A stretch of DNA of 64,000 bases from Melioribacter sp. (lineage in GTDB: Bacteria > Bacteroidota > Ignavibacteria > Ignavibacteriales > Melioribacteraceae). The position numbers and the translations under genes are program-made. Shown one piece after another: positions 13,379 to 47,222 of the stretch (the stretch's first letter is position 1; each line of letters opens with the position of its first letter). The notes below the pieces were generated by a model, which was not told the origin of the DNA, searched no databases, and saw nothing but the letters and a program-made list of their open reading frames with translations. Location: contig PMDS01000025.1 of assembly GCA_003155655.1 (NCBI GenBank), positions 354 to 64,353 on the forward strand, in the 5' to 3' direction.

Positions 13379-14743
13379 TTACTTGATTAGCAGCATCTTC
13401 TTGTACAATGTCTGATTCTTAAAAGTTACACTATAAAAATAAATACCTGAAGCATAATTTGATGCGTTCCATAATACGCTGTGTGCGCCTGCAGAAATTA
13501 CATCATTAACTAATGTTGCTAACTCTCTACCCAATACATCAAATACTTTTACTACTACTTTTCCATCTTCAGGAATTGAATAATTTATAGTTGTTGAAGG
13601 ATTAAACGGGTTGGGAAAATTCTGATCGAGCACAAATCGTTTGGGTAACTGAATTGGATTATATTTAATACCTGTTATTCCGCCATTAGTTGTATGGTAG
13701 ATCATACCGTTTTCTCCAACCGCAGTCCCAGCGTAGTCATTGGAGAAGCAGATTCCATGGAAATTGTTACAAGCGACCAACTGAAGTATCCAGTACCCAT
13801 CACCATCTTTCAAAGAATCAGCATATAATTTAACCCCACCGTTTGAAGTATGGTAAACTTGATTATATAATACAACAGTACCCGTTTTGGCATCTATGAA
13901 GGAAACTCCAAAAAGAGGGTCTGGGTAACACTGCTTGCAAAGTGAAGCAATACTATCCCTATTTGGTGTTTCATTTATCCACGATACCCCGCCATTTATT
14001 GTACGGAGGATTCTAGGACCGTTGTCATAACACGGGGTAATACATGGATAATGTTGATAAATACCAACTACAATTCCGGTGTCGGCAGATGGGAATGAAA
14101 CTGCACCCAAGCCATAATCTTTTGAGATCGATCGGGTTGTCCATTTTATTCCACCATTTGTTGTACGGAGAATTGTACCTGAATCACCGACTGCAGTTCC
14201 AACATTAACATCAGTAAAAAAGACTGCATTGAGAGTGTTTGATGTTCCACTTGATTGACGCTCCCACACTTTTCCTCCGTTTGTTGTATGAAGAATAATA
14301 CCTGAACCTCCAACTGCAGTTCCATTATTGAGATCAGTAAAAGAGACTGCATTGAGAGTGTTTGTTGTCCCGCTTAATTGATGATCCCACACTTCGCCTC
14401 CGTTTGTTGTATGTAGAATAATGCCGGAATCTCCAACTGCAGTTGCTGTGTTGACATCGGTTGCAGAAACTCCCCTGAGCCAATTCATCGTTCTGCTTAA
14501 TTGACTGATCCAAACCGTTCCTCCATTGGTGGTGTGGAGAACAGTACCAGATCCTCCAACAATGAAACCCGTATTTACAGTAACAAAGGATACACTAAGA
14601 AGACTGATACTTTGAACTTGTGAAGGTGTATATTGACGAACCCAGCCTGATTGTGAAGAAACAATCCCGCTAAACATCATTAATATATTGAACAATAAGT
14701 AATAAAAATTTTTTTCCATAACTTCACCATCAAAAATTTTCAA
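13379..14743 (-). CDS. T9SS cargo protein with Ycf48/BNR-like repeats and a C-terminal T9SS sorting domain
   Basis: 454 aa with a signal peptide, at least five repeats of ILHTTNGG.xW, and a C-terminal FPNPFNPSTTI...KKMLLIK domain (Por secretion tail). Confidence 0.75.
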   Translation of the reverse strand: MKIFDGEVMEKNFYYLLFNILMMFSGIVSSQSGWVRQYTPSQVQSISLLSVSFVTVNTGFIVGGSGTVLHTTNGGTVWISQLSRTMNWLRGVSATDVNTATAVGDSGIILHTTNGGEVWDHQLSGTTNTLNAVSFTDLNNGTAVGGSGIILHTTNGGKVWERQSSGTSNTLNAVFFTDVNVGTAVGDSGTILRTTNGGIKWTTRSISKDYGLGAVSFPSADTGIVVGIYQHYPCITPCYDNGPRILRTINGGVSWINETPNRDSIASLCKQCYPDPLFGVSFIDAKTGTVVLYNQVYHTSNGGVKLYADSLKDGDGYWILQLVACNNFHGICFSNDYAGTAVGENGMIYHTTNGGITGIKYNPIQLPKRFVLDQNFPNPFNPSTTINYSIPEDGKVVVKVFDVLGRELATLVNDVISAGAHSVLWNASNYASGIYFYSVTFKNQTLYKKMLLIK

Positions 14744-15416
14744 TTTCTTTGTTCTCAGAAGAACGGAAAGTCTTAATTAAACCCGTTAATAATTTTTTAG
14801 CAGCATATAATTCCTCCTCTTATTTGTTATTATAATTTCTAAATTATTTGTGTTAATTATTACTGAAATTATTTATCAAGCAAGAATAGGAAATTGCTAA
14901 TTTAGCTTACACGCAGAACAGGAAATATATTTAAAAGTACTCCAAGAATTTCCACCCATAAAAAAAGCCCCAAGAAGAAGAATAAAAACTTTTTAAGTTT
15001 CTAAAAATAAGGTAAGGGAAATCAAAGCCTCTGTCAATACCAAAAGATACGCAAAAAAGACATTCTGTGTTCTGGTCATCATAAAGAAAACAAAAAATTA
15101 TTATTTAATTAACAAGCTGGACTGAATTGCTGAAGTAATACACAGAGGCAGGTAAATAAACGAACGCGGCTCATCTCGATACTCTCTTCGCTACGCTCAG
15201 AGAACTCGATGACCGCCGCTACTCACCGCACTGCATTACGTTACACCATGCCCTCGACAAAAAACGCGAAACAAGCGTGATGGGCTGTGGCGAGTTTGAA
15301 AATAATCTATTCTGGTTAAAACCTGCCCGTGTAATAATAGGCGTATTAATTTTTTTTAAGCATCATTTTTTTTACTTAATTTAAAAACATTAATACTCAA
15401 AAATTAGAGCTACCCC

Positions 15417-32874: not shown

Positions 32875-33456
32875 ATGTTAACCAAGTTTAAAGGATTATC
32901 CGATTTAGAATTAATGCACGAGATTTCCCAGTTTGAATCCCGCGCCCTTGAAGAATTGTATGACCGTTATTCATCTCTTCTATACACAATAATCAAGAAG
33001 ATTTCTCCCGACCAGGCAACAGCAGAACAAATTCTGATTGAAGTATTTGTAATGGTTTGGCGAAAAGCTGATAAATTCAATTTTAGCATCGGCAACATTT
33101 ACGCCTGGCTTGTTACACTTGCGCGCAACAGAGCCGTAGATGCTCTTAGAAGAGAACGTGAATCAAACAATACAATACAATTTTACGATGATGATTATGA
33201 AGACTATTTTATACTTCCAACCTTCCCTAAGGATATGGATAATTTAGATTTTAACACAGCCTTTACTATCAAACCTAAAATAGAAAAGTCTCTTTCAAAA
33301 CTGACTGACACGCAGAAATACGTTTTGCATCTTGCTTATTATGAAGGATATACAATTGATGAGATTGCGGATAAGTTAAATGTTCCAATTGAAACAGTAC
33401 GTTCTAAGGTTATGACCGCACTTCAGAGTTTAAGAGATTATTTGGTGAAGCAATGA
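32875..33456 (+). CDS. ECF-type RNA polymerase sigma-70 family factor
   Basis: 193 aa with region 2 (ELYDRYSSLLYTI...) and region 4 helix-turn-helix. It overlaps the downstream anti-sigma gene by 4 bp. Confidence 0.85.
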   Translation: MLTKFKGLSDLELMHEISQFESRALEELYDRYSSLLYTIIKKISPDQATAEQILIEVFVMVWRKADKFNFSIGNIYAWLVTLARNRAVDALRRERESNNTIQFYDDDYEDYFILPTFPKDMDNLDFNTAFTIKPKIEKSLSKLTDTQKYVLHLAYYEGYTIDEIADKLNVPIETVRSKVMTALQSLRDYLVKQ

Positions 33457-34619
33457 GCAAGACTGAAGATCAAGCAATTCATGAAATGATAGCTGCTTTT
33501 GCAATTGGCTGTATGGATAAAGCCAATTACATGCAGTTTAAGGATTATCTTTCCGAGGGCAGCGAACTGCCCAAAGGTGAATTAGGAGAACTTCAAAATA
33601 TTATATCAATGATTCCAATTATACTTGATCTGGAAGTTCCGAATACTACAATCAAGGATAAAGTTGCAAAAAGATTGATTGGAATGAAGGAAGAAATAAA
33701 AACCAAGATTTTTGAAGATAAAAAAAGGTCTACCCGGCCATTAGCAAAAACAGCCTGGATAGACCCGCCTTCAGCGCAACCATCAGTATCGTTTTCAGGT
33801 CAGCCCAAAAAAGAGGATTTCACATTTGGCGGTAAAAAAGCTCCGACCGGAACATCAGCGTTTCAGTTCGGAGATGATCAAGTTCCTTCAATATTTGAAA
33901 AGGACGGACAAAAAAAGGCTGAACAACCATTACAGCAAAAAGAGTCCGACTCAATACCCAAAAGGATGGAGCAAATACCTGAACCTGAGTCATCAAAGTC
34001 ATTGTTCCAATCAAAACGTGCAGAACAGGAAAAACCTGTTCAGCAGGAAAAAGTTTCTTCCGGCGCTGTTGGCTGGATCGCAATTCTTATAACAATCATT
34101 CTTTTTTCAATTATAGGCTATTATACTTTTTCAACTACAGAATCTCTGCGTAGGCAGGTTGAAGATCTTAAAAGTGATGTTACAGTTTTGAGAACTCAGC
34201 AGGCAACGGCAAATAATTTTATTGCCAATTACACGTCATTAATAGAATTCTTTTACTACAAAGACATAGTTGTTTATAACCTTGTTAGTTCGGAAGTAAA
34301 TGAAAAAGCATCTGCACAATTACTTATTTCTTTTAACGAGAAAGAAGGATTAATTCAATTTAAAAATGCAAAGATGCTGCCCCCGGACCAAAGCTTTCAG
34401 GTTTGGGCTGTAAGTAAGGGGCAGGCTTATTCAATTGGTTCATACCAGCCGATGGGTAGTGAATACATTAAAATTACTTCATTCCCGTTCTTACCAAAAG
34501 AAAAGATAGATTCATTTAAGGTTACACTTGAACAAAAAGATGGTGCTCAATTCCCTTCGGCAAAAATTTATCTTACTTATTCACAAGCCGGAAATCCTCT
34601 GCACGGCAAAGCACGCTGA
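33453..34619 (+). CDS. Putative anti-sigma factor (single TM, RskA-like C-terminal domain)
   Basis: 388 aa, translationally coupled to the ECF sigma gene, with a central TM helix and a low-complexity linker. Confidence 0.6.
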   Translation: MSKTEDQAIHEMIAAFAIGCMDKANYMQFKDYLSEGSELPKGELGELQNIISMIPIILDLEVPNTTIKDKVAKRLIGMKEEIKTKIFEDKKRSTRPLAKTAWIDPPSAQPSVSFSGQPKKEDFTFGGKKAPTGTSAFQFGDDQVPSIFEKDGQKKAEQPLQQKESDSIPKRMEQIPEPESSKSLFQSKRAEQEKPVQQEKVSSGAVGWIAILITIILFSIIGYYTFSTTESLRRQVEDLKSDVTVLRTQQATANNFIANYTSLIEFFYYKDIVVYNLVSSEVNEKASAQLLISFNEKEGLIQFKNAKMLPPDQSFQVWAVSKGQAYSIGSYQPMGSEYIKITSFPFLPKEKIDSFKVTLEQKDGAQFPSAKIYLTYSQAGNPLHGKAR

Positions 34620-34621
34620 TC

Positions 34622-35125
34622 TTATTTTTTCCTGTTTAAAAATATGCTGATTCCCAGTACAAGTAATAAAACAGGCCAAAAAACATCAAATATATTTCCA
34701 ACTTTGTTTACAAGATTGAATAATCCAATGTTTTTTAAAAATATTATTGAAACAATGCTTAATAAGAACATTATAATTGAGGGAGCCAGCAATATTTTCT
34801 CTTTTGGATTTTCAATAAATAAAATAAACATTACAGCGCCGGTAATAAAAAGGATAGATGAGAATATAGTGCCTCTTGTATCGGTTATCTTGTAATAAGA
34901 TTTGACTAAGAATATTACACCCGCCAGGAATAAAATAGTTGCAAAAACTAAACTGGCTCTGTCCCCGCTTCCCAGAGAAATATAAACTGTTATTACCGAG
35001 TACAGGATAAAAGCAATTGCGATTATAATTTCAACATCTACCGAAATAATTCCCAAATAATTTAGAAATGAAAATACGCCCATTAAGCAAAAGCAGGATC
35101 CCAGTACTAATTTTTTTCTATTCAA
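34622..35125 (-). CDS. Hypothetical integral membrane protein
   Basis: 167 aa with 4-5 TM helices. It overlaps the PspC-domain gene by 8 bp, so the two are likely an operon. Confidence 0.5.
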   Translation of the reverse strand: MNRKKLVLGSCFCLMGVFSFLNYLGIISVDVEIIIAIAFILYSVITVYISLGSGDRASLVFATILFLAGVIFLVKSYYKITDTRGTIFSSILFITGAVMFILFIENPKEKILLAPSIIMFLLSIVSIIFLKNIGLFNLVNKVGNIFDVFWPVLLLVLGISIFLNRKK

Positions 35126-35816
35126 GATTATTTCCCGCTTCAGAAGAAGTTAATAAAACAATTAAAATATATAACAATGAAAAAGCGCCAAGTGTAAGCA
35201 GAGTCATAAGAATAAAAATTATTCTTAATGAAGAAGAATCTATGTCAAGGTATTTTCCAAGTCCTCCGCAAACGCCCATTAACCGTCGGTCATTTTTTGA
35301 ACGGAAGAGTTTTTCCGCGCGGTTTTTAGGATTTTCTGACGCTCCATAATTTTTATTTATCAAAATAATAACACCCAAAAAGAAAACTGCAACTGGAAAT
35401 AAAAAACTGTTAGGGAGAAGAAATATTCTTACGGAACTGCTTAGTCCAAATGCAATCAGTGCATAATGAAACCCAACCAGGAGTAAAATTCCGCTCAACA
35501 CTACTCTAAAATTTTCTTTACGTTGTGCAGTTAATTGCTTATCCGATAGAACCGGTGGTGACGTCTCGATTGACATTAAAGAGGCTGTAATCAGGTAGGC
35601 AATTATACTCCATCCGCCCAGTAATAAGGTAAACAGGGCTATAAGCCGCAGGTTTCCAACGTCGGCATTAAAATAATCTGCAATACCGGAACAAACGCCA
35701 GCCAGCACTACATTATTTCTTGAGCGCTGAAATCTTTTAAATTTTGGCAACTGCTGTGCGGAATCCATCTTATCAAAAAGATTCTCTTGTTGCTCCGGTA
35801 TTTGTTCATTTTCCAT
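35118..35816 (-). CDS. PspC-domain protein (two PspC domains)
   Basis: 232 aa with two copies of the PspC signature (GVCSGIADYF...LRLIALF and GVCGGLGKYL...LRIIFIL). Confidence 0.75.
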   Translation of the reverse strand: MENEQIPEQQENLFDKMDSAQQLPKFKRFQRSRNNVVLAGVCSGIADYFNADVGNLRLIALFTLLLGGWSIIAYLITASLMSIETSPPVLSDKQLTAQRKENFRVVLSGILLLVGFHYALIAFGLSSSVRIFLLPNSFLFPVAVFFLGVIILINKNYGASENPKNRAEKLFRSKNDRRLMGVCGGLGKYLDIDSSSLRIIFILMTLLTLGAFSLLYILIVLLTSSEAGNNLE

Positions 35817-36200
35817 AAAAATTCTTTTTATTTAGAAAATCCTAAAATTTATTGCCAGTGATTGTTAAGAACATTTAATCTTAACCTTTACAAGCCAACA
35901 CAATAACCCTGGTGAAAGTTCTTTCATCTGTTTTCAATATACTACGGTAATCATTTAGAATAGAAAGTTATTTATGATGATAACTATATCCAAGAATAAA
36001 ATGCAATTCTCGATTTTTACTGATAATAAGTCTGATTAAACTATAATTAAGAAATGAAGAAAAATTTAGTAATTAAGGCGTAAAATTAGGATATTATCAA
36101 AAAAAAATATTAAATTCATTTAAGATTTTGATTACGCCTCGTTTGCGTCAATTCTTTAGTGATCTCAAGAAATTGAACGAAATATTTAGGAGATAAAATT

Positions 36201-37169
36201 ATGTTGATAGCTATAGCCATATTCGCACTCATTATTGTAATAGCGCTCGTGTTTGAATATCGTTTTAGAAAGCCGGACGAACTGGTGCTGTATGAATCTA
36301 ATAATAAAATTATACAGCGTAAGTCACGTTTTTACCCAAGGCATTTTAGTCTTGCGCTTCAAAACACTACTCATTCATTCCAGCTTAACGTGGATGCTGC
36401 TGCAAAAGGCAATCTTGATATCAAGATAAAACTTTCTGTAACCGTTGCTGCCGCTATAGGTAATATTCCGGCATTAATTCGCGTTGGAGGATGGAACAGC
36501 AATGCTGTTATTGGATCTGCAAAAGAATTGGAAATTATTATTCAGAGCATAATAAAAGAATTTGCTGAGAAGTACGAAATTGAGGAATTATCATCCGAAA
36601 AGATTTACAATTATCTGCGCCCTAAAATTGATGTAAGCAAAGAAAAACTTGGCCTTGAAGTTATTTCTCTTACTGTACAATCTTTCGAGGCTCTGGATCC
36701 TAAAATATCTGAAGCAATGCGCCAGCAGGAATCAGCTAGGATATTGGAACAGACGGAATTGCTTAATCAAAAAGCAAGAATAGCTGCGTTTAAAACAAAA
36801 CTGAAAGCAGACGAAGAAATTGCAATAATGGAAAACGAACTTGAATTAAAAAAATATGAGCTTAAGAAAACAGAACTTGAAAAAGAAGCTGCATTAGCAC
36901 AGAAAAGAGTTGAAGATGAAATAAAGAGAAAAAAGATTCAGCTTGCATTTGATAAAGAGGAATTGGAGCTGCTAAAGAATAGTCCGGAATTATTAATGCT
37001 GACTCCACAGGCAGCCCGACTTGCAGAGGCGAGCCAATCTTTGAAAAATGCAAAGACTGTGGTTTCTCTTTCGCCAAATGAAGTTTCCCAGGGGATAGAC
37101 CTTGTGGGTATGTTCCAAAAATTTTTACAGAATGCAATGAACGTTTCTTCAAAAAAGAGTAAAGACTAA
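36201..37169 (+). CDS. SPFH/band-7-like membrane protein with a C-terminal coiled coil
   Basis: 322 aa with an N-terminal TM helix, an SPFH-like core and a long Glu/Lys/Ala-rich coiled-coil. It lies 27 bp upstream of the giant ORF. Confidence 0.55.
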   Translation: MLIAIAIFALIIVIALVFEYRFRKPDELVLYESNNKIIQRKSRFYPRHFSLALQNTTHSFQLNVDAAAKGNLDIKIKLSVTVAAAIGNIPALIRVGGWNSNAVIGSAKELEIIIQSIIKEFAEKYEIEELSSEKIYNYLRPKIDVSKEKLGLEVISLTVQSFEALDPKISEAMRQQESARILEQTELLNQKARIAAFKTKLKADEEIAIMENELELKKYELKKTELEKEAALAQKRVEDEIKRKKIQLAFDKEELELLKNSPELLMLTPQAARLAEASQSLKNAKTVVSLSPNEVSQGIDLVGMFQKFLQNAMNVSSKKSKD

Positions 37170-37196
37170 TAAATTATTGAGGGCGCAGTTTAGAAA

Positions 37197-40100
37197 ATGT
37201 CGAAACATAAAGACCCACTTGAATATTTTAGATTAAAGCCGATAAAAGCCGCAAAGGTTTCGGAGGTAAGTGAAACAACCGCTTCTTCAGGAGTGCCTGC
37301 TGAAGAAAGAGTAAATTTTCACATCGGTAACCCTGTGCAGGATAAACAGCTTTCTTCGGCTTATTTGCGGTTGATATTGGGCGTGGGAATCGAAAATCAA
37401 TTTTTAACTGATGATAATCTTGATGACGTTGTTAAATATCTGGATAGAGGTGTGGATGAAAAAGTTAAAGTTGAATTCTTATCAGCTCTCATAAAGAAAA
37501 GCGCGCCATATATGCCGCGGGGCGGGTATACTAAAAGCAATCCAAATTTTTTGATAAAATCATTTAATGAATGGCTTGTAAAAGATCAACAGGAACCGCT
37601 CTCCTATGATCTGGGCGAGGTCTCCGGCAAGCGGGAAATTATTTTAGCTTCAGGTGGCGTTGATGAAGCACTGAGAATTCTGTTTCTTGCTTTGCCTAAT
37701 TATTTTTTAAACCAAAACATAAAATTTCTTTTATACGAAAAAAATCTTCCCAAACATCTTTTGTCAATACCGTCTATTCAATTTGAAAGTATTGCACAGG
37801 ATGAGACAAAGCTTGTTAAAAATGTTAGAGAACAATTGATTAATTCCCAGGGAGTTCCAACATTTTTAATTCTAGGGAAAAATACAAGTGAAGGAACAAG
37901 AAGGAGCCTTCGTCATCTTAGTCTTGAACTCCCTCTCTTTTTTATAGAGGTCAATGATGCTCCTAATCATTTATCTCTTTCCCGTGAAGCAAAAATGATG
38001 AACAGGGTTCTGCGTTTTTTAACACCGCAAATTTTTTCTTCCAAATTTGCAAATCTCTCAACTGTTTTTATAGTCGGCAATTCCGAATTTATAAAGGTAA
38101 TAGAGACAATTCATTTCCAATTAAAAGGCACCCCTTCAGCCTCAGAAGTGGAATTTCTTTCGTTTCTAATAAAAGAAAATCTTGTAATTGAAACCGGTAA
38201 CGATAGAAAAATAGAAATTGAGCCATCATACGAAAGCAGCCTGTTGAAAATTGCCGGCGAAAAAACTACCGGGCCCCATGCAAAGTATATTGAAAATAAA
38301 TTATCTAATGCTGTTGAGCGGGCATCAAATATTTTAGAAGGCACTATTGGAAAAATTTCGATTAAAGAAAATGCAGTTGTAAACCGGTCAAAGAAATTAT
38401 TGTCATTTTTTTCGTTTGATAAATTTTCAGAAAAAGATGCTTTAGTGTTGCTTGATGAATTTATTGAAAATGTCGATTCATTAGCTTGGTTTGAAGAACT
38501 TATTGACAGCTTTCTTCATTCTTTTGTTAAGCACCATCCCGAATACAATATTAAGAATTGTGTAATAGCCAGCGGGTCATCCCGCACAGGTCTTGGACTG
38601 CTTGGTTTCCACTGCGGCATAAAGGAAGTTATAATTCCGGATTTAAGCTGGACTTACGAGCATTGTTTTCCCAAAGTTACTGTTGTTGCTCTCAAAGAGA
38701 ATTTCGAAATAGATGTTGATGCTTTGATTAATGCAGTTGAACATGCTCTATCGGCGGATCCTCACTGGAATAATTATGGCGCAGTTGTTTTGAACAATCC
38801 TCATAATGCAACGGGACAGCAGTTTGACAGCAGTGAGTTGAAACGTCTTCTTAAATGGGCGCTTGAGAAAAATATTTTTGTTATAGATGATCTCTCATAT
38901 CAAAACGTTGAACCGGTTGATGCTTTAAATCAAATAAAAACAATCAGGCAGCTGGCAGACGAACTTTATTCGGCAGGCTACATAACAAGAGAGCAGTCAA
39001 ATTTAGTTATTACTGTTCATTCGGTTTCAAAAACAGATTCACTTGCAGGCGCACGCCTTTCCGTTATGGAAATCCGCCATGAGGAATTGTTTAAAAAAGT
39101 TTCTGAAATTAATTCGACAATTAAACCGAACATAACGGCAATATTTTTAACATACTTGTTTTATAGATGCCACGCAGAAAATGTAAATGCATATTGGCGT
39201 TTACGCAATGTGATATTCAAAGAAAGAATGGCTTCACTTAGTGAAGCTGTCGACATTTTACCTAAAGAACGGAACAGGTTCAGCATAGAAATTAAACCGC
39301 CCAAAGGCAGTATGTATCCTCAAATGATTATTAAAAAGCTGCCGTCAGGATTATCTCTGGATTGGCTTGCAACCGGTCTGGCAAGACAAGGAATTGGGCT
39401 TATTCCGCTTTCAACATTTGCACGAACTGAAAAAGGATTTGAGGCAGGAAGGAAAACATTTCGTTTAACGCTTGGCGGGACTGATAATTCTGAAATACTT
39501 CTCAAAAAAACGAGACGTGTTCTAATTGATTTAAACAGGATGATTGCCGAAGAGGCTGCAAATTATAATTGCAAGCAATTTAAAGTAATTCCACGAATTA
39601 CAAAAAAATTATTTATTCATAATGAACAAATAGATAAATGGAATCTGGTTGAAAATAAAATAATTGAATTGTGCAAGGAGAATGCTGCCGGGACTATTAA
39701 GCAGCACAATGATGAATTTTCAGACGAAACATACTATAAAAGATTTGCGAATGAATTTATTCCAGAAAGGCTATATCTTTTTAAAAGACGTTTTGATGAA
39801 AGATTGAACATTGCAAACGAGCTTATGGAATCTGCACTGGCTGATAAGGGAAAAAATCTTGCAGCAGTTCTTGAACGTGAATTTTATAAGGACAACCTTG
39901 AAAAGAGAGAACGGGCATTCAAGCTAAGATTATACGACAGAACTGTGCATCCAACTCAGATGTATTCTTTAAAAGTTGACCTGCTCTTCCAGGAAATTAT
40001 TGAATTAATAATTAGGAATAAGAATATTCCGCTTGTCCTTATTCAAAAATTGGCGGCAGAATTAGCCAAAGAATTCTTTGGACTGAATGTCTCAATTATT

Positions 40101-42809
40101 TCCGCTGAAGAACCTTACGAATTGATTCTTGATCTAAATACAATTATTGCCGCAGAAAATTTCACAAACTTACATTCGGACCTATCATTCCAAACATTTA
40201 TATCTTTTTGGGGTGACTGGGATGGAAGCACCCGTCCATCAGGACAGGGGCACAGTTTAGTTGCTGCAGTGTTAAAAGAAAATGTTGCACGCCAATCAAG
40301 ATTGATTCAACTGCTGGTAAAGAGCGATAAATCAGTTAAGATTGATCAGAATCTTCTTTCGGAGATAGAAAAACTGCCTGAAAAGAATAAGCGGTTTTCA
40401 AATTTGCTAAATGATATAACGTCGCTTACTCATCAGTTGGAAAAGAGATACCGCGGAATTCTGCCTTTCAATTTAAAACCGGGGCGGGTAAGGGAATTAG
40501 GAATGCGCCTGCACATTGCGCAGGACCCTTTAACTTCCCTGTGGCATCATAATGACCGGCTTGAAAGAAAAATGCTTGAACTTCGCCTGCAAAGAAGAAA
40601 CACGCTTGAATATTATTTCTCATTAAACAAACAGATGAGAAAAGTTCTTCATTCATTAATACCTTCAATAATAAAAAACATTAACAATGAAGAATTATTT
40701 CTTGAAGCATGTTTGTTTAAAGATTTACTTAAACGTTTTGTTGTTACTCCGCGCATTCATCAAAAATTGATTACAACACAGGATCAATTTGCAATAGACA
40801 CAACTGTATATAACATTAACGAGATTAACGAAATTTCCGGAAAATACGGTAACCCCGGTATGGTGCTGGCATTGCAGGTTAGCATGTCTACTAAAGCTGA
40901 TGCATTGATTTCAATTGATAGAAAAATGCGTGCAAGACGCGAACAAATTTTGCGTGATGATAATGAAACTGAACTCCCGTCCCCATCAATAATTCCTTTG
41001 TTTGAAGATACTGATTCAGTGAAGAACCTAACCAATTACTTAAATAAAATTTGGGAATATGCTCTTCAAAGCAGACGCATGAACCAGGAAACAAGTGAAA
41101 GATTTTCCGAGATTATTGCAGAAGTTTTTGTTGCCGGTTCCGATTTAAGCCAGCAGGTTGGGCAGGCAGCGGGAATGAATTTATATAAAGCAGCAAAACA
41201 CCAGTTGACTTCGTGGCTTGCTGAAAAGGGTTTGATTGGTAAAGTTAGAATGAAAATGGGCAGCGGTGAACCAATGCAGCGCCAGGGAGGTTATTATTCA
41301 AACGTTGTCGGCAAATCTGCTTTTATAAAATCTGCAGATTCCTTGAAGAGGTTTTCTCAATATCTTAAAGCTTCAACTAGAAAAAGTACAGAGTATGCAG
41401 CAACACCGTTGATTGGAGTTTTTGCAGGAGGGGATTTACGCACTTTTCAAAGCAACATCTCTGAAAAATTGAGATATATTTCTGTAAATGAATTATCGCA
41501 GCTTCTTTACCATGTAAAAGAGTCCCAAAAATTTTACGAAACAGAAATAAAACGCGCAGGTGAACCGCTTGTTGAAACCAGGCTGCAATTTAAAACCCGG
41601 GGCTTAAAAGAATTAGAACGTCTTACCATCGGCAGAAAAGACGAACTGTTTGATGATTTCTTGTCCATTCTTACGGAAAATTTCCGTCAAATTTTATATG
41701 GCCGCGAAGAAGATGTTGTGGGAATACATGTTATTTCTTATTTCATTGCTAGAACAACCCCAAACCTGCGTGATAGACCCACCGTACGACCAGTACAAGG
41801 CGCTTCAGGCAGCGAAGGACAAAAAATTCTGGAAAGGATTGCACAGACAATACCGTTCTCCCGTTATGGAAGTCTACTGAGGGCAATTGCCCATAATCAA
41901 TCGCAAACTGTTGTATTGGGAATTAACCAGTTGACTTCTGGATTATTCCGTGCACTTGATAGTTTTTCGCAAAAGCATTTTAGCGAAGGAGAAACAAGCT
42001 CTTTAATTGAAGATAGAATTCTTCCCAATCTGCCCGTTTATGAAATTCTGCATACATTGCGCACCTATCATGATGTGGATTTGATTTATTTAAATAAACT
42101 GGAAAAAGCATTCCCGGCGGGTAACTCTGCATTCATTGCATTAAGAGAAGATATCGATTCTTTAAACAAGTATTTAATTTTATTTCAGCGTGAACTTTTA
42201 AGGCGCCATGGGCTTAATGTAACAGACTTTTTTGACGAAGATCAGTTTATTGCAGATCTTTTACCAACTCTGCGCCCTGATCTGGCAGTAATCTTACAGC
42301 AGGATTTTTTCAATACCAATCCCGAAAAAGTACTTTCATCTATCAGCGGGCACGTAGACTCCAAATGGATGGAAGAAACAAGGAAAATTCTTGTTATACC
42401 GGACCAGGTAAAATATTTTCGTTCAAAAATCTGGGATCTGCTGGAGCAGCCGGTATACCAGCGTGTTGCAAGCTTTAGCGAACTTGCAATTGCCCTGCAT
42501 TCTCTCTCATCAAATGTGCAGACTAAAGAACTTCCATTTGCACCAAAAAAAATAAAGCCGTCTGCTGATATATCAAATTTCTTCAAGATGTCCGGCGATG
42601 ATAATATGCGCCAGTTCCTTGCTGCAGCATTTGAATATCTATCTACTGTTTCCGAAGGAATGGTTGAAGTACCCATAAATATAATTCGTGCAATGAAAGA
42701 AGTTGAACGTATTATAAAAATAGAAGAACTTGCTCTTTCCCACAAACAGCAGGATCTTTTGCGGTTTTATTTATTGCAGATAGCACGCCTAACCGGCGAG
42801 AACGGGTAA
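37197..42809 (+). CDS. Giant multidomain protein (1870 aa): PLP-dependent fold-type I aminotransferase-like domain fused to a full-length, motif-degenerate phosphoenolpyruvate carboxylase (PEPC)-like domain
   Basis: Aminotransferase motifs: NPHNATGQQF...FVIDDLSY and VHSVSKTDSLAGARLS (PLP lysine). PEPC-like motifs: TVHPTQ (compare TAHPTE), SFWGDWDGSTRP (compare SWMGGDRDGNP), LQVSMSTKADAL...IPLFEDTDSVKNL (compare ISMAKTPSDVLAV...APLFETLDDLNNA) and VFVAGSDLSQ...KMGSGEPMQRQGG (compare VMIGYSDSAKDAG...FHGRGGSIGRGG). The C-terminus TGENG compares with the PEPC C-terminal NTG. Confidence 0.85.
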   Translation: MSKHKDPLEYFRLKPIKAAKVSEVSETTASSGVPAEERVNFHIGNPVQDKQLSSAYLRLILGVGIENQFLTDDNLDDVVKYLDRGVDEKVKVEFLSALIKKSAPYMPRGGYTKSNPNFLIKSFNEWLVKDQQEPLSYDLGEVSGKREIILASGGVDEALRILFLALPNYFLNQNIKFLLYEKNLPKHLLSIPSIQFESIAQDETKLVKNVREQLINSQGVPTFLILGKNTSEGTRRSLRHLSLELPLFFIEVNDAPNHLSLSREAKMMNRVLRFLTPQIFSSKFANLSTVFIVGNSEFIKVIETIHFQLKGTPSASEVEFLSFLIKENLVIETGNDRKIEIEPSYESSLLKIAGEKTTGPHAKYIENKLSNAVERASNILEGTIGKISIKENAVVNRSKKLLSFFSFDKFSEKDALVLLDEFIENVDSLAWFEELIDSFLHSFVKHHPEYNIKNCVIASGSSRTGLGLLGFHCGIKEVIIPDLSWTYEHCFPKVTVVALKENFEIDVDALINAVEHALSADPHWNNYGAVVLNNPHNATGQQFDSSELKRLLKWALEKNIFVIDDLSYQNVEPVDALNQIKTIRQLADELYSAGYITREQSNLVITVHSVSKTDSLAGARLSVMEIRHEELFKKVSEINSTIKPNITAIFLTYLFYRCHAENVNAYWRLRNVIFKERMASLSEAVDILPKERNRFSIEIKPPKGSMYPQMIIKKLPSGLSLDWLATGLARQGIGLIPLSTFARTEKGFEAGRKTFRLTLGGTDNSEILLKKTRRVLIDLNRMIAEEAANYNCKQFKVIPRITKKLFIHNEQIDKWNLVENKIIELCKENAAGTIKQHNDEFSDETYYKRFANEFIPERLYLFKRRFDERLNIANELMESALADKGKNLAAVLEREFYKDNLEKRERAFKLRLYDRTVHPTQMYSLKVDLLFQEIIELIIRNKNIPLVLIQKLAAELAKEFFGLNVSIISAEEPYELILDLNTIIAAENFTNLHSDLSFQTFISFWGDWDGSTRPSGQGHSLVAAVLKENVARQSRLIQLLVKSDKSVKIDQNLLSEIEKLPEKNKRFSNLLNDITSLTHQLEKRYRGILPFNLKPGRVRELGMRLHIAQDPLTSLWHHNDRLERKMLELRLQRRNTLEYYFSLNKQMRKVLHSLIPSIIKNINNEELFLEACLFKDLLKRFVVTPRIHQKLITTQDQFAIDTTVYNINEINEISGKYGNPGMVLALQVSMSTKADALISIDRKMRARREQILRDDNETELPSPSIIPLFEDTDSVKNLTNYLNKIWEYALQSRRMNQETSERFSEIIAEVFVAGSDLSQQVGQAAGMNLYKAAKHQLTSWLAEKGLIGKVRMKMGSGEPMQRQGGYYSNVVGKSAFIKSADSLKRFSQYLKASTRKSTEYAATPLIGVFAGGDLRTFQSNISEKLRYISVNELSQLLYHVKESQKFYETEIKRAGEPLVETRLQFKTRGLKELERLTIGRKDELFDDFLSILTENFRQILYGREEDVVGIHVISYFIARTTPNLRDRPTVRPVQGASGSEGQKILERIAQTIPFSRYGSLLRAIAHNQSQTVVLGINQLTSGLFRALDSFSQKHFSEGETSSLIEDRILPNLPVYEILHTLRTYHDVDLIYLNKLEKAFPAGNSAFIALREDIDSLNKYLILFQRELLRRHGLNVTDFFDEDQFIADLLPTLRPDLAVILQQDFFNTNPEKVLSSISGHVDSKWMEETRKILVIPDQVKYFRSKIWDLLEQPVYQRVASFSELAIALHSLSSNVQTKELPFAPKKIKPSADISNFFKMSGDDNMRQFLAAAFEYLSTVSEGMVEVPINIIRAMKEVERIIKIEELALSHKQQDLLRFYLLQIARLTGENG

Positions 42810-42826
42810 TTCCTGCCCGTTTTTTA
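42801..42826 (+). terminator. Intrinsic terminator overlapping the stop of the giant ORF
   Basis: Hairpin AACGGG-taattcctg-CCCGTT followed by TTTTAAG. Confidence 0.5.
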
Positions 42827-42883
42827 AGAATGCAACTTCCACACAATTCTTTTATATTACTTGCACACAAAAAGTATTTTTCA

Positions 42884-43105
42884 ATGAATGAATTGCAGCC
42901 GTTTGGTAAATATTTAATTATTGCCGGAATCTTAATTGTGGCGGTTGGAATACTATTATCGTTTTGGGATAAAATTCCTCTTCTTGGAAAACTTCCCGGC
43001 GACATTATCATTAAAGGAAAGAATTTTACTTTCTACTTTCCAATTGTCACATCAATAATTTTGAGTCTTCTTTTTTCCTTAATTCTTTACCTGTTCAGAA
43101 AATAA
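42884..43105 (+). CDS. DUF2905-like small membrane protein
   Basis: About 73 aa from MNELQPFGKYLIIAG. It has two TM helices and a GKLPGD motif typical of DUF2905. Confidence 0.55.
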   Translation: MNELQPFGKYLIIAGILIVAVGILLSFWDKIPLLGKLPGDIIIKGKNFTFYFPIVTSIILSLLFSLILYLFRK

Positions 43106-43155
43106 ATTGTCAGTTAACCTTCATAAATAAAGCTATTGAATATTGAGAGGTAATC

Positions 43156-44457
43156 ATGATTGAAAAATATTTTCATCTGAAAAAACTTGGTACAACTGTT
43201 AAGCAGGAGATAATTGCAGGCGCTACAACGTTTGTTACAATGGCTTATATTATTATAGTAAACCCCAAAATTCTTGAAGCCGCCGGAATGCCGTTCGGGG
43301 CTTCAATGGTTGCTACAATTATCAGTGCATTCTTTGGTACGTTATTAATGGGAGTTTATGCAAAACGTCCGTTTGCAATTGCACCCTACATGGGAGAAAA
43401 TGCGTTTGTCGCTTATACTGTTGTAAATGTTCTTCATTACAGCTGGCAGACGGCTCTTGGCGCAATTTTTATTGGCGGGGTTTTATTTACGCTGCTCACA
43501 ATTCTAAACATTAGAAGCTGGCTGGCTAATGCAATTCCCGAAAGTTTGAAAATTGCGTTTGCCGCAGGGATAGGACTCTTCTTAACTTTTATTGGATTAA
43601 ACGATACTGGCATTGTAAGAATTGGAGTTCCGGGCGCGCCTGTTCATGTAGGAAATTTCCACGAACCGTCAGTATTGCTTGGAATATTTGCCTTTTTATT
43701 CATTGGCGTTTTGATGATAAAAAAGATCAATGGGTCAATTTTAATTGGAATTCTTGTTACAACTCTTTTGGGTTTTATATTCGGAGTCACTCGAGTCCCG
43801 GGTGTATTTGTAAGTTTGCCTCCAGATATCAGTCCTGTATTTTTACAGCTTGATATTTTAGGAGCATTAAGCTGGGGCTTCTTTGCAGTTATACTTGTTG
43901 TTTTTGTAATGGATTTTGTAGATACAATGGGCACACTGCTTGGGTTGGGTTATAAAGCAAAAATGCTGGATGAAAAGGGCAATCTGCCCGAAATTGAAAA
44001 ACCAATGTTGGTTGATGCACTGGCAACAGTCGTAGGAGCTCTTTGCGGAACAACTACAAGCGGGGCCTATATTGAATCCGCAACAGGTATTGAAGCAGGT
44101 GGTAAATCAGGTTTTACTGCCGTAGTCACTGCAATATTATTTCTCTGTGCTCTTTTCTTCGCGCCTTTGCTTTCTACTATTCCGCCTTATGCATACGGAT
44201 CGGCATTAATAATAGTTGGTCTGTTGATGATATCATCAATGTCGCATTTAAAATTTGATGATCTGGCAGAAACTATCCCGGCATTTGTTACAATGACTCT
44301 TATGAGCTTTACCTTTAATCTCGGTATTGGTATGACTGCTGGATTTGTTGTATATCCTCTAACAATGCTTGTTGCAGGAAGAATCAAAATCGTTACACCT
44401 GGGATGTGGATTCTTTTCTGTTTCTCTGTTTTGTTTTACATTTTTTATCCGTATTAA
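43156..44457 (+). CDS. NCS2-family purine permease (AzgA/PbuG-like adenine/guanine/hypoxanthine transporter)
   Basis: 433 aa. The N-terminus FHLKKLGTTVKQEIIAGATTFVTMAYIIIVNP is highly characteristic of AzgA-family permeases. Confidence 0.85.
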   Translation: MIEKYFHLKKLGTTVKQEIIAGATTFVTMAYIIIVNPKILEAAGMPFGASMVATIISAFFGTLLMGVYAKRPFAIAPYMGENAFVAYTVVNVLHYSWQTALGAIFIGGVLFTLLTILNIRSWLANAIPESLKIAFAAGIGLFLTFIGLNDTGIVRIGVPGAPVHVGNFHEPSVLLGIFAFLFIGVLMIKKINGSILIGILVTTLLGFIFGVTRVPGVFVSLPPDISPVFLQLDILGALSWGFFAVILVVFVMDFVDTMGTLLGLGYKAKMLDEKGNLPEIEKPMLVDALATVVGALCGTTTSGAYIESATGIEAGGKSGFTAVVTAILFLCALFFAPLLSTIPPYAYGSALIIVGLLMISSMSHLKFDDLAETIPAFVTMTLMSFTFNLGIGMTAGFVVYPLTMLVAGRIKIVTPGMWILFCFSVLFYIFYPY

Positions 44458-44493
44458 TTTTCACTTAAACAAATTCTGAAAAACGAGGAAATT

Positions 44494-44934
44494 ATGACAG
44501 ATCAATTTATGCGCGCCGCAATTGAAGAAGCCAGAAAAGGACTAAGTGAAGGTGGAATTCCAATCGGCTCCGTTCTAATTATTGATGGCAAGATAGTAGG
44601 ACGAGGTCATAACCGGCGTGTTCAAAGTGGAAGCGCTATCCTGCATGCAGAAATGGATTGTTTTGAAAATGCCGGAAGATTGACCGCAAGGGATTATCAA
44701 AGAGCAGTTCTGTATTCAACGCTTTCTCCATGCGATATGTGCAGCGGAACAGTCCTGCTTTATAAAATTCCTAAAATTGTTATAGGGGAGAACAGAACCT
44801 TCCGCGGACCTGAAGATTATGTTAAGTCACGCGGTGTTGAACTGGAAATATTAAACGATTCCGAATGTATAAAGCTGATGGAAGATTTTATTGCAAGCAA
44901 TCCAAAACTTTGGAATGAAGATATCGGGGAGTAA
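44494..44934 (+). CDS. CMP/dCMP-type zinc deaminase (cytosine/guanine deaminase family)
   Basis: 146 aa with the HAE...PCxMC zinc-binding motifs (HAEMDC, PCDMCSG). It is adjacent to the purine permease. Confidence 0.8.
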   Translation: MTDQFMRAAIEEARKGLSEGGIPIGSVLIIDGKIVGRGHNRRVQSGSAILHAEMDCFENAGRLTARDYQRAVLYSTLSPCDMCSGTVLLYKIPKIVIGENRTFRGPEDYVKSRGVELEILNDSECIKLMEDFIASNPKLWNEDIGE

Positions 44935-45028: not shown

Positions 45029-45457
45029 GTGGCGGTAAAAAAAGCGGTAATAAAACATATAAAAGGCGTTACATTTATTGGCAAGGCAGATTCAAACCAT
45101 TGGATTACAATGGACGGACCTGAAAATTTTGGAGGAAGCAATGCCGGAATTCGTCCGAAAGAATTGCTGCTTGTGGCGCTTGGCGGCTGTACGGGAAGTG
45201 ATGTTGCGACTATTCTTCAAAAAAAGAAAGTTAAGCTTGATGGCTTTGAAATAAATGTTTCTGCAGAAATGCAGGAAACTCACCCGCAGGTTTACACAAT
45301 AATTGAACTGGAGTATGTATTTTACGGTAAAAACATTCCTAAAGAAGCTGTTGAGCGGGCAATTGAACTTTCTCTAACAACTTACTGCAGCGTTACTGCA
45401 ATGTTAAAAAAAGCAATCGAGATAAAGCATTCATATAAAATTGTTGAAACAGATTAA
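45029..45457 (+). CDS. OsmC/Ohr family peroxiredoxin-like protein
   Basis: 142 aa with the conserved Cys pair (GGCTGSD and TYCSVTA). Confidence 0.8.
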   Translation: MAVKKAVIKHIKGVTFIGKADSNHWITMDGPENFGGSNAGIRPKELLLVALGGCTGSDVATILQKKKVKLDGFEINVSAEMQETHPQVYTIIELEYVFYGKNIPKEAVERAIELSLTTYCSVTAMLKKAIEIKHSYKIVETD

Positions 45458-45473
45458 ACGGAATAATTTGCGG

Positions 45474-45854
45474 TTAAATATTTTCCTGCTGGATTAATTT
45501 ACGCCCGATAAAGCCATCATCCAATCCATGATAATAAATTATATCTTCTTCATCACTTCGCCAGCATAATAAAACTTCTTCCCCGTTAATTATGGATGGA
45601 AAGTCTACAATGCCAATTTCGAAATTCCAATCCTTATAAATACAGCCAATATCTTCAAGTTCTTTAATGAACGAATTGATTTTTGAGGTCAGAAACTCAA
45701 TTTTTTCTTCAGAATCAACGTTGTCAAAATTTAAGTCAGCGATGTTTTTTATCTGGAAAGAGTGGTTCAGAATATCACCAACTATCTGACGCACAAGTGG
45801 AAGAGTCCTTTGCGCCTCTTCCGGTGTAAAATATTTTACCTCTGTCTGTGACAT
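45474..45854 (-). CDS. Hypothetical protein (DUF2203-like)
   Basis: 126 aa. The N-terminal FTPEEAQRTLPLVRQIV pattern is reminiscent of DUF2203. The assignment is weak. Confidence 0.4.
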   Translation of the reverse strand: MSQTEVKYFTPEEAQRTLPLVRQIVGDILNHSFQIKNIADLNFDNVDSEEKIEFLTSKINSFIKELEDIGCIYKDWNFEIGIVDFPSIINGEEVLLCWRSDEEDIIYYHGLDDGFIGRKLIQQENI

Positions 45855-45993
45855 TAATTTCTAAAGTTTTTCTAATTGGTAAATGAAATAATCCATCAAT
45901 TAGTTCCCAAGATTAATTTAAGAATCTTTTATGCACTTGACAACTAGTTTATTATCAATTATTTTAATGTCGTAATATCATACATAATAATAC

Positions 45994-46452
45994 ATGCAGT
46001 CTACAATAAAATATAGTAAACGGATAGATCTTGCTTTGATTACCTGGGTAAAGCTGGCAAGAGCATTTTCATCATTTGAAAAAAAATCAAACGAGAGTAT
46101 TCGTTCGTTTGGGTTAACGCAGGCACAGTTTGCTGTAATTGAGGTGCTGGGGCATTTGGGACCCTTAAAAATTGGTGAAATTTGCAAAAAAATGCTGGTT
46201 ACAGGCGGAAACATGACTTTAGTTTTAGATAATATTGAGAAAATTGGTCTAGTTGAACGGGTACCAAGCAAAGATGATAGACGGGCTATTGACGTTCAGC
46301 TCACCGACAAAGGGAAAAATCTGTTTGATGAAGTATTTGAGAAGCATGCAGAAAACATTGCAAGGTTTATGTCTGTATTAACTCCTGCGGAACAATCAAC
46401 ACTGGGTTCGTTGTTAAAGAAGTTAGGGTTGTCTGTTAGCAAGCAGGAATAA
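45994..46452 (+). CDS. MarR family transcriptional regulator
   Basis: 152 aa with a winged-HTH pattern (LTQAQFAVIEVLGHLGPLKIGEICKKMLVTGGNMTLVLDNIEKIGLVER). Confidence 0.75.
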   Translation: MQSTIKYSKRIDLALITWVKLARAFSSFEKKSNESIRSFGLTQAQFAVIEVLGHLGPLKIGEICKKMLVTGGNMTLVLDNIEKIGLVERVPSKDDRRAIDVQLTDKGKNLFDEVFEKHAENIARFMSVLTPAEQSTLGSLLKKLGLSVSKQE

Positions 46453-46514
46453 AAATTTTTTAAATATATATAACGAATTAGTAATATACAAATTCGTAGA
46501 AAGAGGTCAGAGAA

Positions 46515-47222
46515 ATGATTGAAATAAGAAGAAGTGATGAACGCGGAAGAACTAAAATTGATTGGCTGGACAGCTATCACAGTTTTTCATTTGGCGAGTA
46601 TTATGATCCCAAGAATATTCACTTTGGTCCTTTGCGTGTTCTTAATGATGATCTCATACAGCCAGGAGAAGGGTTTCCTACTCACCCGCACAAGGAAATG
46701 GAAATAGTAACTATTGTAACTGAAGGAACCGTTACTCACAAGGACAGTTCCGGCGGACAGGGAACCATTACTATGAATGAAATTCAGCGTATGACGGCTG
46801 GTAAAGGCGTTTTTCATTCAGAGTATAACGATTCAGATTTTGATGTACTAAAGCTTTTTCAGATATGGTTTATTCCCAATAAGCAAAATCTTGAACCATT
46901 TTACGAACAAATGAAGTTTTTTCATCAGGAAAAGAAAAATAAATTATTAAAGGTTGTAAGCGGAAAAAAAGAAAAGGGAATAATTTTTATAAATCAAGAT
47001 GCGGAAATTTATCTTTCCGATCTTGACGCTAATACCTCAATACAGTATGATATTCCCGAAAAGCGCGGTGTTTATATTCACATTATGGATGGAAGCATTT
47101 CAATTAATGGAATTGCTCTTAAAAAAGGTGACGCTGCAAAAATATATGAAGAAGATAAAATATCTATTCAAGCTGAAAAAGATTCCCAAATAATGCTCTT
47201 TGATTTGCCAATGGATTTTTAA
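46515..47222 (+). CDS. Pirin family (bicupin) protein
   Basis: 235 aa with HPHKEMEIVTIV..G and an N-terminal RRSDERG pattern typical of pirin/YhhW. Confidence 0.85.
   Translation: MIEIRRSDERGRTKIDWLDSYHSFSFGEYYDPKNIHFGPLRVLNDDLIQPGEGFPTHPHKEMEIVTIVTEGTVTHKDSSGGQGTITMNEIQRMTAGKGVFHSEYNDSDFDVLKLFQIWFIPNKQNLEPFYEQMKFFHQEKKNKLLKVVSGKKEKGIIFINQDAEIYLSDLDANTSIQYDIPEKRGVYIHIMDGSISINGIALKKGDAAKIYEEDKISIQAEKDSQIMLFDLPMDF

Follow-up and report, generated by a model that had tools for sequence, protein, structure and literature searches.

Phosphoenolpyruvate (PEP) carboxylase (PEPC) is a textbook enzyme of which, to our knowledge, just two types are recognised. Fold-type I pyridoxal phosphate (PLP) aminotransferases usually obtain a partner subunit through dimerisation, and SPFH proteins are known to assemble at membranes into oligomeric scaffolds or cages that serve client proteins. 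Here we describe a two-gene module from Melioribacter sp. (Bacteroidota; Ignavibacteria; Melioribacteraceae) in which an aminotransferase domain is fused to a domain that is very probably a remote relative of PEPC, and in which the fusion gene is paired with an SPFH gene. The window, that is, the whole stretch of 64,000 nucleotides that was analysed, spans positions 354 to 64,353 of contig PMDS01000025.1 (GenBank assembly GCA_003155655.1), and all coordinates below are those of the window unless another locus is named. As a preliminary description made from the sequence had reported, the listing of open reading frames (ORFs) holds a pair on the plus strand at 36201..37169 (322 amino acids) and 37197..42809 (1870 amino acids) with a 27-bp gap between them. 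The pair is divided as follows.

36201..37169, plus strand: SPFH/Band-7 membrane protein, 322 amino acids (Pfam Band_7)
37197..38186, plus strand: N-domain, residues 1-330 of the fusion protein, conserved alpha/beta (hhalign and AlphaFold2 (AF2) model)
38187..38486, plus strand: helical linker, residues 331-430, poorly conserved (family alignments and AF2 model)
38487..39566, plus strand: class-I (fold-type I) PLP aminotransferase domain, residues 431-790 (Pfam PF00155 and invariant PLP site)
39642..42272, plus strand: PEPC-like domain, residues ~816-1692 (same order as residues 17-868 of E. coli Ppc)
42273..42809 including the stop codon, plus strand: C-terminal extension, residues 1693-1870 (beyond the hhalign alignment; conserved within the family)

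We consider it highly likely that this architecture and both homologies, to aminotransferases and to PEPC, are right. The motifs quoted in the preliminary description are all in the sequence, and they are invariant or nearly so in 26-56 homologues.

The aminotransferase domain is the more readily recognised of the two. Residues 431-761 match PF00155 (Aminotran_1_2) at E=2e-14, with 53.9 bits against a cut-off of 19.7, and the same cut-off is passed by 25 of the 25 other homologues scanned. Three motifs mark the PLP site.

Residues 533-540: NNPHNATG
Residues 564-568: DDLSY
Residues 609-622: SVSKTDSLAGARLS

The PLP-site residues N537, D565, Y568, S611, K612 (the Schiff-base lysine), R620 and R756 are invariant in all 56 sequences of the family alignment, and R756 is predicted by alignment to be the C-terminal arginine that binds the substrate alpha-carboxylate. 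D565 would serve the pyridine nitrogen of PLP, N537 and Y568 its O3' and R620 its phosphate. The aminotransferase region that had been proposed from its motifs is thus upheld by the Pfam search and by the invariance of its PLP site. An AF2 model of residues 1-830 (predicted local distance difference test (pLDDT) 66, predicted template-modelling score 0.66) retrieved LysN, ACC synthase and AspAT in Foldseek (E~1e-11, TM(target) ~0.6), and the closest solved relative by profile is the kynurenine aminotransferase BNA3 (PDB, E=2e-8). We regard the domain, from its residues and its model, as a probable catalytically competent class-I PLP enzyme. Many NCBIfam aminotransferase equivalogs are matched as well, all of them far below threshold and 10-15x under every cut-off.

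To place the remainder of the fusion protein, we relied on a 56-sequence family alignment in which identity falls to 36% in the C-terminal half. The PEPC-like domain carries the following motifs.

39942-39959, plus strand: TVHPTQ, residues 916-921
40206-40229, plus strand: FWGDWDGS, residues 1004-1011
40875-41288, plus strand: catalytic core QVSMSTK...PLFED...AGSDLSQ...GSGEPMQRQGG (VSMSTK, residues 1228-1233; PLFED, 1267-1271; AGSDLSQ, 1313-1319; GSGEPMQRQGG, 1355-1365)
41769-41792, plus strand: RDRPTVRP, corresponding to GSRPAKRR of PEPC
41877-41900, plus strand: LRAIAHNQ, corresponding to LRAIPWIFAWTQ of PEPC

The family profile was compared by hhalign with a profile of 11 PEPC sequences, namely E. 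coli ppc and ten chromid or megaplasmid ppc genes from Proteobacteria, Actinomycetota, Bacteroidota and Halobacteria. The result is one collinear alignment of 715 columns that pairs positions 17-893 of the C-terminal slice with residues 17-868 of Ppc (score 41.5, P=0.0015). The reversed PEPC profile scores 22.2, and 30 block-shuffled profiles, in which the motifs are kept and their order is scrambled, score 16.1-30.3. With unrelated domains as controls, the aminotransferase domain scores 14.2 and the N-domain 20.1 against PEPC. The PEPC-like order of motifs, which had been aligned by eye, is borne out by these scores, and two further motifs were added to it.

Searches with a hidden Markov model (HMM) of PEPC, run with filters off, point the same way. 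They match 52 of the 56 members at a per-sequence P<=0.01 and 34 at <=1e-3, the top-scoring matches falling in one register (model positions ~500-636 to slice positions ~400-547), against 4/56 scattered matches at P<=0.01 and 1/56 at <=1e-3 on reversed sequences. The reciprocal HMMER search, also with filters off, matched 6/11 PEPCs and 0/11 reversed ones. Pfam E-values are given against 24,736 models, with PEPC as a pre-specified hypothesis. When members were scanned individually, PF00311 was matched in 2/11 (E=6.8e-4 and 1e-3) and PF14010 in 1/11 (E=7.5e-3), and the homologue P0155 matches PF14010 at E=0.013. The PF00311 match of the homologue P0047 (E=0.001) pairs residues 1200-1363 with positions 471-621 of the 919-position profile, which places it in the catalytic core and in the same register as the hhalign alignment.

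Several results weigh against homology to PEPC. The hhalign probability is just 17%, and the P0047 match reaches 17.6 bits, below the PF00311 gathering score of 22.4. The window protein has no Pfam PEPcase match, not with the limit relaxed to E<=10 nor with the sequence divided into segments; PEPcase is likewise absent from Pfam scans of nine divergent C-terminal domains and of five homologues scanned full-length. Neither phmmer nor an 11-sequence profile finds anything for the C-terminal half among PDB sequences, and an exhaustive profile search of 1.84 billion cluster representatives, described below, returned no PEPC among its 240 matches. An AF2 model of residues 800-1870, built from an 11-sequence alignment, has a pLDDT of 50 and does not confirm a TIM-barrel fold. 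On such grounds the C-terminal half might be an unrelated, mostly helical domain whose PEPC-like motifs arose by chance or convergence: standard tools yield no significant match, the tail motif is non-significant, the Foldseek result is noise, and the model, though its confidence is useless, is nearly all-helical and has no barrel strands. We hold this alternative to be very unlikely. About nine motifs are collinear and together score well over all 30 block-shuffles, two independent curated Pfam PEPC models are matched, with the located PF00311 match in the hhalign register, the PEPC HMM separates true from reversed sequences, and identity to PEPC coincides with known catalytic residues.

The C-terminal domain is therefore, on this comparison of profiles, very probably a collinear, remote homologue of PEPC, and the statistical strength of the homology is moderate. 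It has stayed unannotated because standard HMMER searches against Pfam, NCBIfam and PDB find no usable match for it, and since it lies below the Pfam threshold and is invisible to standard searches we call it PEPC-like and not a member of the PEPC family. The preliminary description had expected the domain to score as PEPcase. With standard annotation tools this fails, the window protein being without a match, and what stands is the homology between profiles together with sub-threshold Pfam matches in a few homologues. Its pairing of the terminal TGENG with the NTG of PEPC was not sustained: the motif is invariant in the family as ...IARL(T/A)GENG, and the tail scores 9.6 against the RN(T/S)G tail of PEPC, where shuffles score 8-14. 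The C-terminal extension of ~180 residues has no PEPC counterpart and no detectable relative. Two comparisons were set aside. The hhalign comparison with the single E. coli Ppc gave the right register at a probability of 0.5%, which is too weak, and the diverse profile was used in its place. Foldseek on the pLDDT-50 model returned noise only, with a plant PEPC at rank 6 (E=2.7) that we do not count as evidence.

We then asked how far the fusion extends. A search of 5.8 billion proteins with the 1870-residue protein gave 708 matches, and the best 120 were used for lengths and identities. These are 54-72% identical to it and come from Ignavibacteria, Melioribacteraceae, Stygiobacter and similar sources; 118 are 1845-1892 amino acids long and two are shorter (1835 and 1532). 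The closest match among the 5.8 billion proteins is at most 72% identical, and the closest C-terminal domain in species genomes at most 77%. The source appears to belong to a genus-level lineage of Ignavibacteriales not sampled so far. Full-length homologues occur in hundreds of genomes at 36-77% identity. In species-representative genomes 273 stretches were confirmed as matches, and the best 80 of them underlie all locus counts given here. Most of these 80 loci belong to Ignavibacteriota, cultured Melioribacter, Rosettibacter primus and Stygiobacter electus among them, with other carriers in Kryptoniota, Calditrichia, several bins labelled Acidobacteriota or Bryobacterales and one Anaerolineaceae bin. 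The exhaustive HMMER search, for which the profile covered the last 1071 residues, returned 240 proteins, all from this family; the complete ones are all fusions of 1691-1947 amino acids and the remainder are fragments. No convincing stand-alone form of the C-terminal domain was found among the 240, and the apparently stand-alone matches that were checked are fragments beginning inside the gene, with one ambiguous case (P0156, 994 amino acids).

The unusual length of the ORF, and a few copies in long-read metagenome-assembled genomes (MAGs) that are split by frameshifts, could be taken as signs of an assembly or annotation artefact that joins separate aminotransferase and ppc genes, or of a cargo gene of defence or mobile elements. 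The probability of this is negligible. A single uninterrupted ORF of ~1830-1950 amino acids is found in independent NCBI, JGI, ENA and Logan assemblies, among them those of cultured Melioribacter, Rosettibacter and Stygiobacter strains, with a single copy at each locus and differing chromosomal surroundings, and the anti-phage defence models of PADLOC match neither the SPFH nor the fusion protein at E<=0.1. The ORF is not the chimeric misassembly considered in the preliminary description, because homologue lengths are consistent and full-length homologues are spread across hundreds of genomes. Nor do the abundant homologues carry an established annotation, which had been a further concern; database names go no further than 'aminotransferase class I/II'.

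Two side observations concern individual carriers. At L044, L056, L081, L090, L091 and L072, mostly long-read 'MFD' MAGs, the fusion ORF is broken into at least two pieces, with the SPFH gene and both fusion halves still there; the splits are probably frameshift sequencing errors and not pseudogenes. In bins labelled Bryobacterales, Acidobacteriota or Solibacteraceae and one labelled Anaerolineaceae (L071, L075-L080, L084, L086, L093), the C-terminal domain is 54-57% identical to that of the window. The copies in Acidobacteriota-type and Anaerolineaceae bins indicate that either the gene left the Fibrobacteres-Chlorobi-Bacteroidetes (FCB) group by horizontal transfer or the MAGs were wrongly binned or labelled.

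The alignment with PEPC allows the active site to be read position by position. E. coli residues H138, E506, D543, R587, R699, R703 and R713 correspond to H918, E1270, D1316, R1362, R1527, R1531 and R1562, and these seven are invariant in 56/56 family members and in the PEPC set too. Most invariant columns of the family sit on or beside the PEPC motif loops. Other positions have changed: R396 is replaced by W1116, K546 by Q1319, H579 by L/M and R581 by S1356, and further replacements affect Y541 (to G), G588 (to Q) and K620 (to L). The replacements are themselves conserved in the family, and R396/W1116 lies in the least reliable stretch of the alignment. Of the arginines that bind PEP phosphate in PEPC (R396, R699 and R713), the counterparts of R699 and R713 are thus kept. 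Within the Gly-rich lid FHGRGGxxGRGG only R587 is kept, as R1362, and the lysine of GYSDSxKD has become glutamine. A kept catalytic histidine with altered GYSDS and GRGGxxGRGG loops had already been noticed by eye, and the family alignment agrees. It shows a family that keeps the predicted core for metal, enolate and phosphate together with the catalytic histidine, and in which the Gly-rich lid appears rebuilt.

Several canonical PEPC residues being gone and the Gly-rich loop unrecognisable, the PEPC-like half could be dead, serving as a scaffold for oligomerisation, as a ligand-sensing regulatory unit or as an SPFH-docking scaffold for the aminotransferase. If the N-domain is a degenerate PLP fold, as it appears to be, domain decay already occurs in the same protein. 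We think such a pseudo-enzyme quite improbable: the seven active-site positions (His, Glu, Asp and four Arg) are retained throughout while identity of the domain drops to 36%, and invariant columns at the PEPC motif loops are the signature of a maintained catalytic or ligand pocket, although a sensing pocket would produce the same conservation pattern. Death is thus made the less likely of the two fates, neofunctionalised or dead, that the preliminary description had offered, because metal ligands, catalytic histidine and four arginines are invariant; neofunctionalisation stays as a rival to the carboxylase reading set out next.

We propose tentatively, as a reading that falls somewhat short of an even chance, that the module converts PEP to oxaloacetate and on to aspartate. 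The fusion protein would be a cytoplasmic three-module enzyme beside a single-pass SPFH/Band-7 membrane protein. Its PEPC-like module would bind PEP and metal, form a metal-stabilised enolate and carboxylate it to oxaloacetate, with E1270 and D1316 as predicted Mg/Mn ligands and R1362, R1527, R1531 and R1562 as putative phosphate- or carboxylate-binding arginines. The fused aminotransferase would then turn the labile oxaloacetate in cis into aspartate, and the SPFH partner may tether or enclose the assembly at the membrane. In E. coli Ppc, H138 and R587 matter specifically for the carboxylation half-reaction, so the retention of their counterparts argues for carboxylation. R396, K546, H579 and R581 contribute to the handling of PEP phosphate and bicarbonate according to the mutagenesis literature. 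The PEPC reaction passes through an enolate and carboxyphosphate (PMC8100219); Glu and Asp hold the metal, and carboxyphosphate loses its proton to a conserved His of a flexible loop (PMC10176493). Bona fide archaeal-type PEPCs 'differ strongly' from bacterial ones (PMC8100219) and are active, so that divergence alone does not imply loss of the carboxylase.

This chemistry has evidence to contend with. The loss of R396, K546, H579 and R581 suggests that bicarbonate may not be the second substrate; no aminotransferase equivalog is matched at a level that would point to an amino-acid specificity; in M. roseus, Pyc and Pck are already there to supply oxaloacetate (PMC3534657); and a search for expression or biochemical data on the module found none. 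A neofunctionalised barrel could bind PEP, or another phosphoenol or 2-oxo acid, with metal and make the enolate under a rebuilt bicarbonate lid, the enolate then being protonated or passed to another electrophile, or the phosphoryl group going to another acceptor. The PLP domain would in that case act on pyruvate to give alanine, act on a new product, or supply a PLP-bound electrophile for a C-C bond. We regard this, the main alternative, as rather unlikely. The changes cluster in the GYSDS lysine, the GRGGxxGRGG loop and R396 (K546->Q, H579->L/M, R581->S, G588->Q, R396->W) and are conserved, the distance to PF00311 equals that to PF14010, the ~180-residue extension lacks a PEPC counterpart, the aminotransferase is unlike any characterised subfamily, and conventional anaplerotic enzymes are there in M. 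roseus. Yet H918 (H138) and R1362 (R587) are strictly kept, the alignment is least certain at R396, and no positive evidence points to another substrate. A bolder version, which we hold to be improbable, would make the C-terminal module a third, deeply divergent PEPC class with a rebuilt lid that lacks bicarbonate handling; the module would pass the PEP-derived pyruvate enolate to an electrophile held by the PLP domain, or to another acceptor. The fusion might then be a new C-C-bond-forming amino-acid synthase, a client in or on an SPFH membrane cage.

In the SPFH protein a hydrophobic N-terminal helix (~2-19) is followed by an SPFH domain (59-192), by an E/K-rich stretch that resembles a coiled coil and, at residues ~262-290, by a C-terminal motif that is strongly conserved, PELL(L/M)LTPQAARLAEASQSLKNA(K/R)TVVSL; the hydrophobic N-terminus (MLIAIAIFALIIVIALVF) and the heptad-like character of the E/K-rich stretch are read from the sequence alone. 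The window protein matches Band_7 (PF01145) at E=1.7e-5, with 25.4 bits against a cut-off of 23.6, and 15/17 of its orthologues match as well (best E=1.8e-11). No solved SPFH structure is matched by sequence.

The pairing of the two genes, which had been left as a check, proved to be conserved. An SPFH orthologue lies immediately 5' of the fusion gene on the same strand in 73/80 loci, and the seven loci without it are truncated or frameshifted contigs. Gaps between the two genes are mostly 8-60 bp, and the genes sometimes overlap. The pairing is kept in the most divergent members (~36% identity), where the upstream 330-amino-acid protein is an orthologue by hhalign (E=2e-58), and also where the rest of the locus context is unrelated. 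The most divergent carrier, L094, has a separate canonical NfeD-Band_7 (stomatin-type) pair at 14722-16811, ~3 kb downstream, and the SPFH protein of the module is for this reason a distinct, dedicated paralogue. A protein listed as 'MROS_1180 band 7 protein' is reported to differ ~10-fold between M. roseus growth conditions (PMC5492636). It may be either the SPFH protein of the module or the ordinary stomatin-type paralogue. Six predicted tryptic peptides were absent from the portions of the M. roseus proteome supplements examined (PMC5492636).

The first 430 residues of the fusion protein have no Pfam or PDB sequence relative, also when 14 orthologues were scanned individually. The N-domain bears the invariant motifs NFHIGNP, PYxPRGG, FFxExNDAPNHxSL and FQLKGxPS. 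A weak in-register hhalign match links it to the aminotransferase domain (P=0.0076; REIILASGG with NCVIASGSS, FFIE with FVID), and in the AF2 model eight of its strands (E) and helices (H) in succession, E148, H155, E175, E194, H203, E222, H232 and E247, parallel E455, H462, E477, E493, H507, E528, H545 and E561 of the aminotransferase large domain. The Schiff-base position falls at G294-N295, and there is no SxSK lysine. We see a roughly even chance that the N-domain arose by duplication of the PLP fold-type-I large domain and has since degenerated, losing its lysine. The second, N-terminal aminotransferase-like segment of the preliminary description is thus favoured by the hhalign match and by the order of elements in the model, and disfavoured by the lack of any Pfam or PDB match. 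If it is such a duplicate, the N-domain would act as a built-in 'partner subunit' that replaces the second subunit of an aminotransferase dimer. In the model the linker has a long helix (361-402) and low pLDDT. A divergent member of 1703 amino acids (P0152) lacks most of the linker (window residues 335-422), which is consistent with a dispensable spacer.

Signals for expression accompany the two genes, which would form a self-contained operon.

36188..36192, plus strand: Shine-Dalgarno-like AGGAG, 8 nt 5' of the SPFH start codon (read from the sequence)
37179..37183, plus strand: Shine-Dalgarno-like GAGGG, within the 27-bp gap, 13 nt before the ATG of the fusion gene (read from the sequence)
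42798..42826, plus strand: terminator-like hairpin with an 11-bp stem and 5-nt loop followed by a U-run, overlapping the stop codon of the fusion gene

The hairpin folds at -13.7 kcal/mol (z=-2.4) and agrees with the terminator that had been proposed to close the unit; it is not in the output of the consensus terminator scan, which places no terminator-like site between the SPFH and fusion genes either. A search for an upstream riboswitch or regulatory RNA found none.

Clustering of neighbouring ORFs gave no conserved neighbour other than SPFH, and no other ORF family occurs in more than 13/80 loci. Just upstream of the module, and partly divergent from it, is an envelope-stress-type cluster (32875-35816).

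32875-33456: ECF sigma factor
33453-34619: RskA-type anti-sigma factor
34622-35125, minus strand: LiaF-TM-like membrane protein
35118-35816, minus strand: double-PspC-domain protein

This cluster accompanies the SPFH/fusion pair in 7-9/80 loci, all of them Melioribacteraceae-like, and it is not part of the module because such an occurrence is lineage-specific synteny. The ECF-sigma/RskA/LiaF-TM/PspC genes and a second cluster, OsmC/DUF2203/MarR/Pirin, were both considered as parts of the module and rejected, as neither exceeds 11/80 loci. The second cluster, of oxidative-stress flavour, stands at 45029-47222 in the window and at 14726-16925 in the syntenic locus L001, where an AhpC-thioredoxin fusion comes after it, and is found in 6-11/80 loci. 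Directly 3' of the module, 42830-44934 encodes a DUF2905 small membrane protein, a xanthine/uracil-family permease and a cytidine/guanine-type deaminase. None of these three genes is in any of the 80 related loci; L001 has an arginase gene in their place, which suggests that genes in this segment were replaced or inserted locally.

The literature holds no description that we could find of an aminotransferase-PEPC fusion, of such a PEPC-like domain or of a comparable SPFH-enzyme pair, and that on anaplerosis in Ignavibacteria yields no description of the fusion either. The preliminary description had been aware of no such fusion family; databases, too, say only 'aminotransferase'. The parts of the module come from known superfamilies. 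Their combination is without a prior description that we found, and this holds for enolate and PLP chemistries joined together as well as for the SPFH scaffold-client pairing. A third PEPC clade unseen by profile databases would widen the sequence space of PEP and enolate chemistry, and this one would be permanently fused to an aminotransferase, carried by Ignavibacteriota and neighbouring phyla and now mislabelled merely as 'aminotransferase'. If aspartate is indeed made straight from PEP, the fusion would be a natural means of channelling unstable oxaloacetate and would give metabolic engineering a compact part, and metabolic reconstructions of widespread sediment, subsurface and wastewater heterotrophs would change. 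A metabolic enzyme that is strictly paired with its own SPFH protein, as a putative client, would be a rare and genetically clean example, and it bears on the question of what bacterial SPFH scaffolds organise.

The module can be set beside four known systems. With the class-I (subgroup I-gamma-like) aminotransferases, such as LysN, the Thermus and Thermotoga AspAT, BNA3 and ACC synthase, the fusion shares a common fold, the full N/D/Y/SxSK/R PLP constellation and the C-terminal carboxylate-binding arginine. It differs in being only 13-22% identical to any solved enzyme and in an insertion of ~25 residues between the Asp and the Lys. Whereas those enzymes are homodimers of 400 residues, the fusion domain is part of a chain of 1870 residues in which a PLP-like domain without the lysine precedes it.

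Compared with the SPFH scaffold-client pairs HflK/C-FtsH, stomatin-NfeD and flotillin-NfeD2, the module likewise has an SPFH protein with a predicted N-terminal anchor and coiled-coil tail in a putative operon with its presumed client, and its gene pair is likewise strictly conserved. Here, however, the presumed client is a giant metabolic enzyme and not a protease or NfeD, and the SPFH protein matches Band_7 weakly and no solved structure by sequence.

Bacterial-type Ppc (PF00311; E. coli, 1JQN) has the same motif order over ~850 residues, a similar size (~880 aligned residues), and the identical catalytic His (in TAHPTE, where the family has TVHPTQ), metal ligands (PLFE- and -SD-), one lid Arg and the Arg of GSRPxxR and LRAI. 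It has GRGGxxGRGG where the family has GSGEPMQRQGG, its Asp-inhibitor site is not alignable in the family, and the family adds the C-terminal extension of ~180 residues. Fusion to two PLP-fold modules, the N-terminal one putative, and pairing with an SPFH gene are constant features of the family domain, and we know of no canonical Ppc for which either is the case. Finally, the archaeal-type PpcA (PF14010, 55-60 kDa) is also a strongly divergent member of the PEPC superfamily and an active carboxylase (PMC8100219). Below threshold, PF14010 is matched by the catalytic core of family members (E=7.5e-3 and 0.013). The family domain differs from PpcA in having about double the length and in an alignment that runs along the whole bacterial-type enzyme, and the family is as remote from PF14010 as from PF00311.

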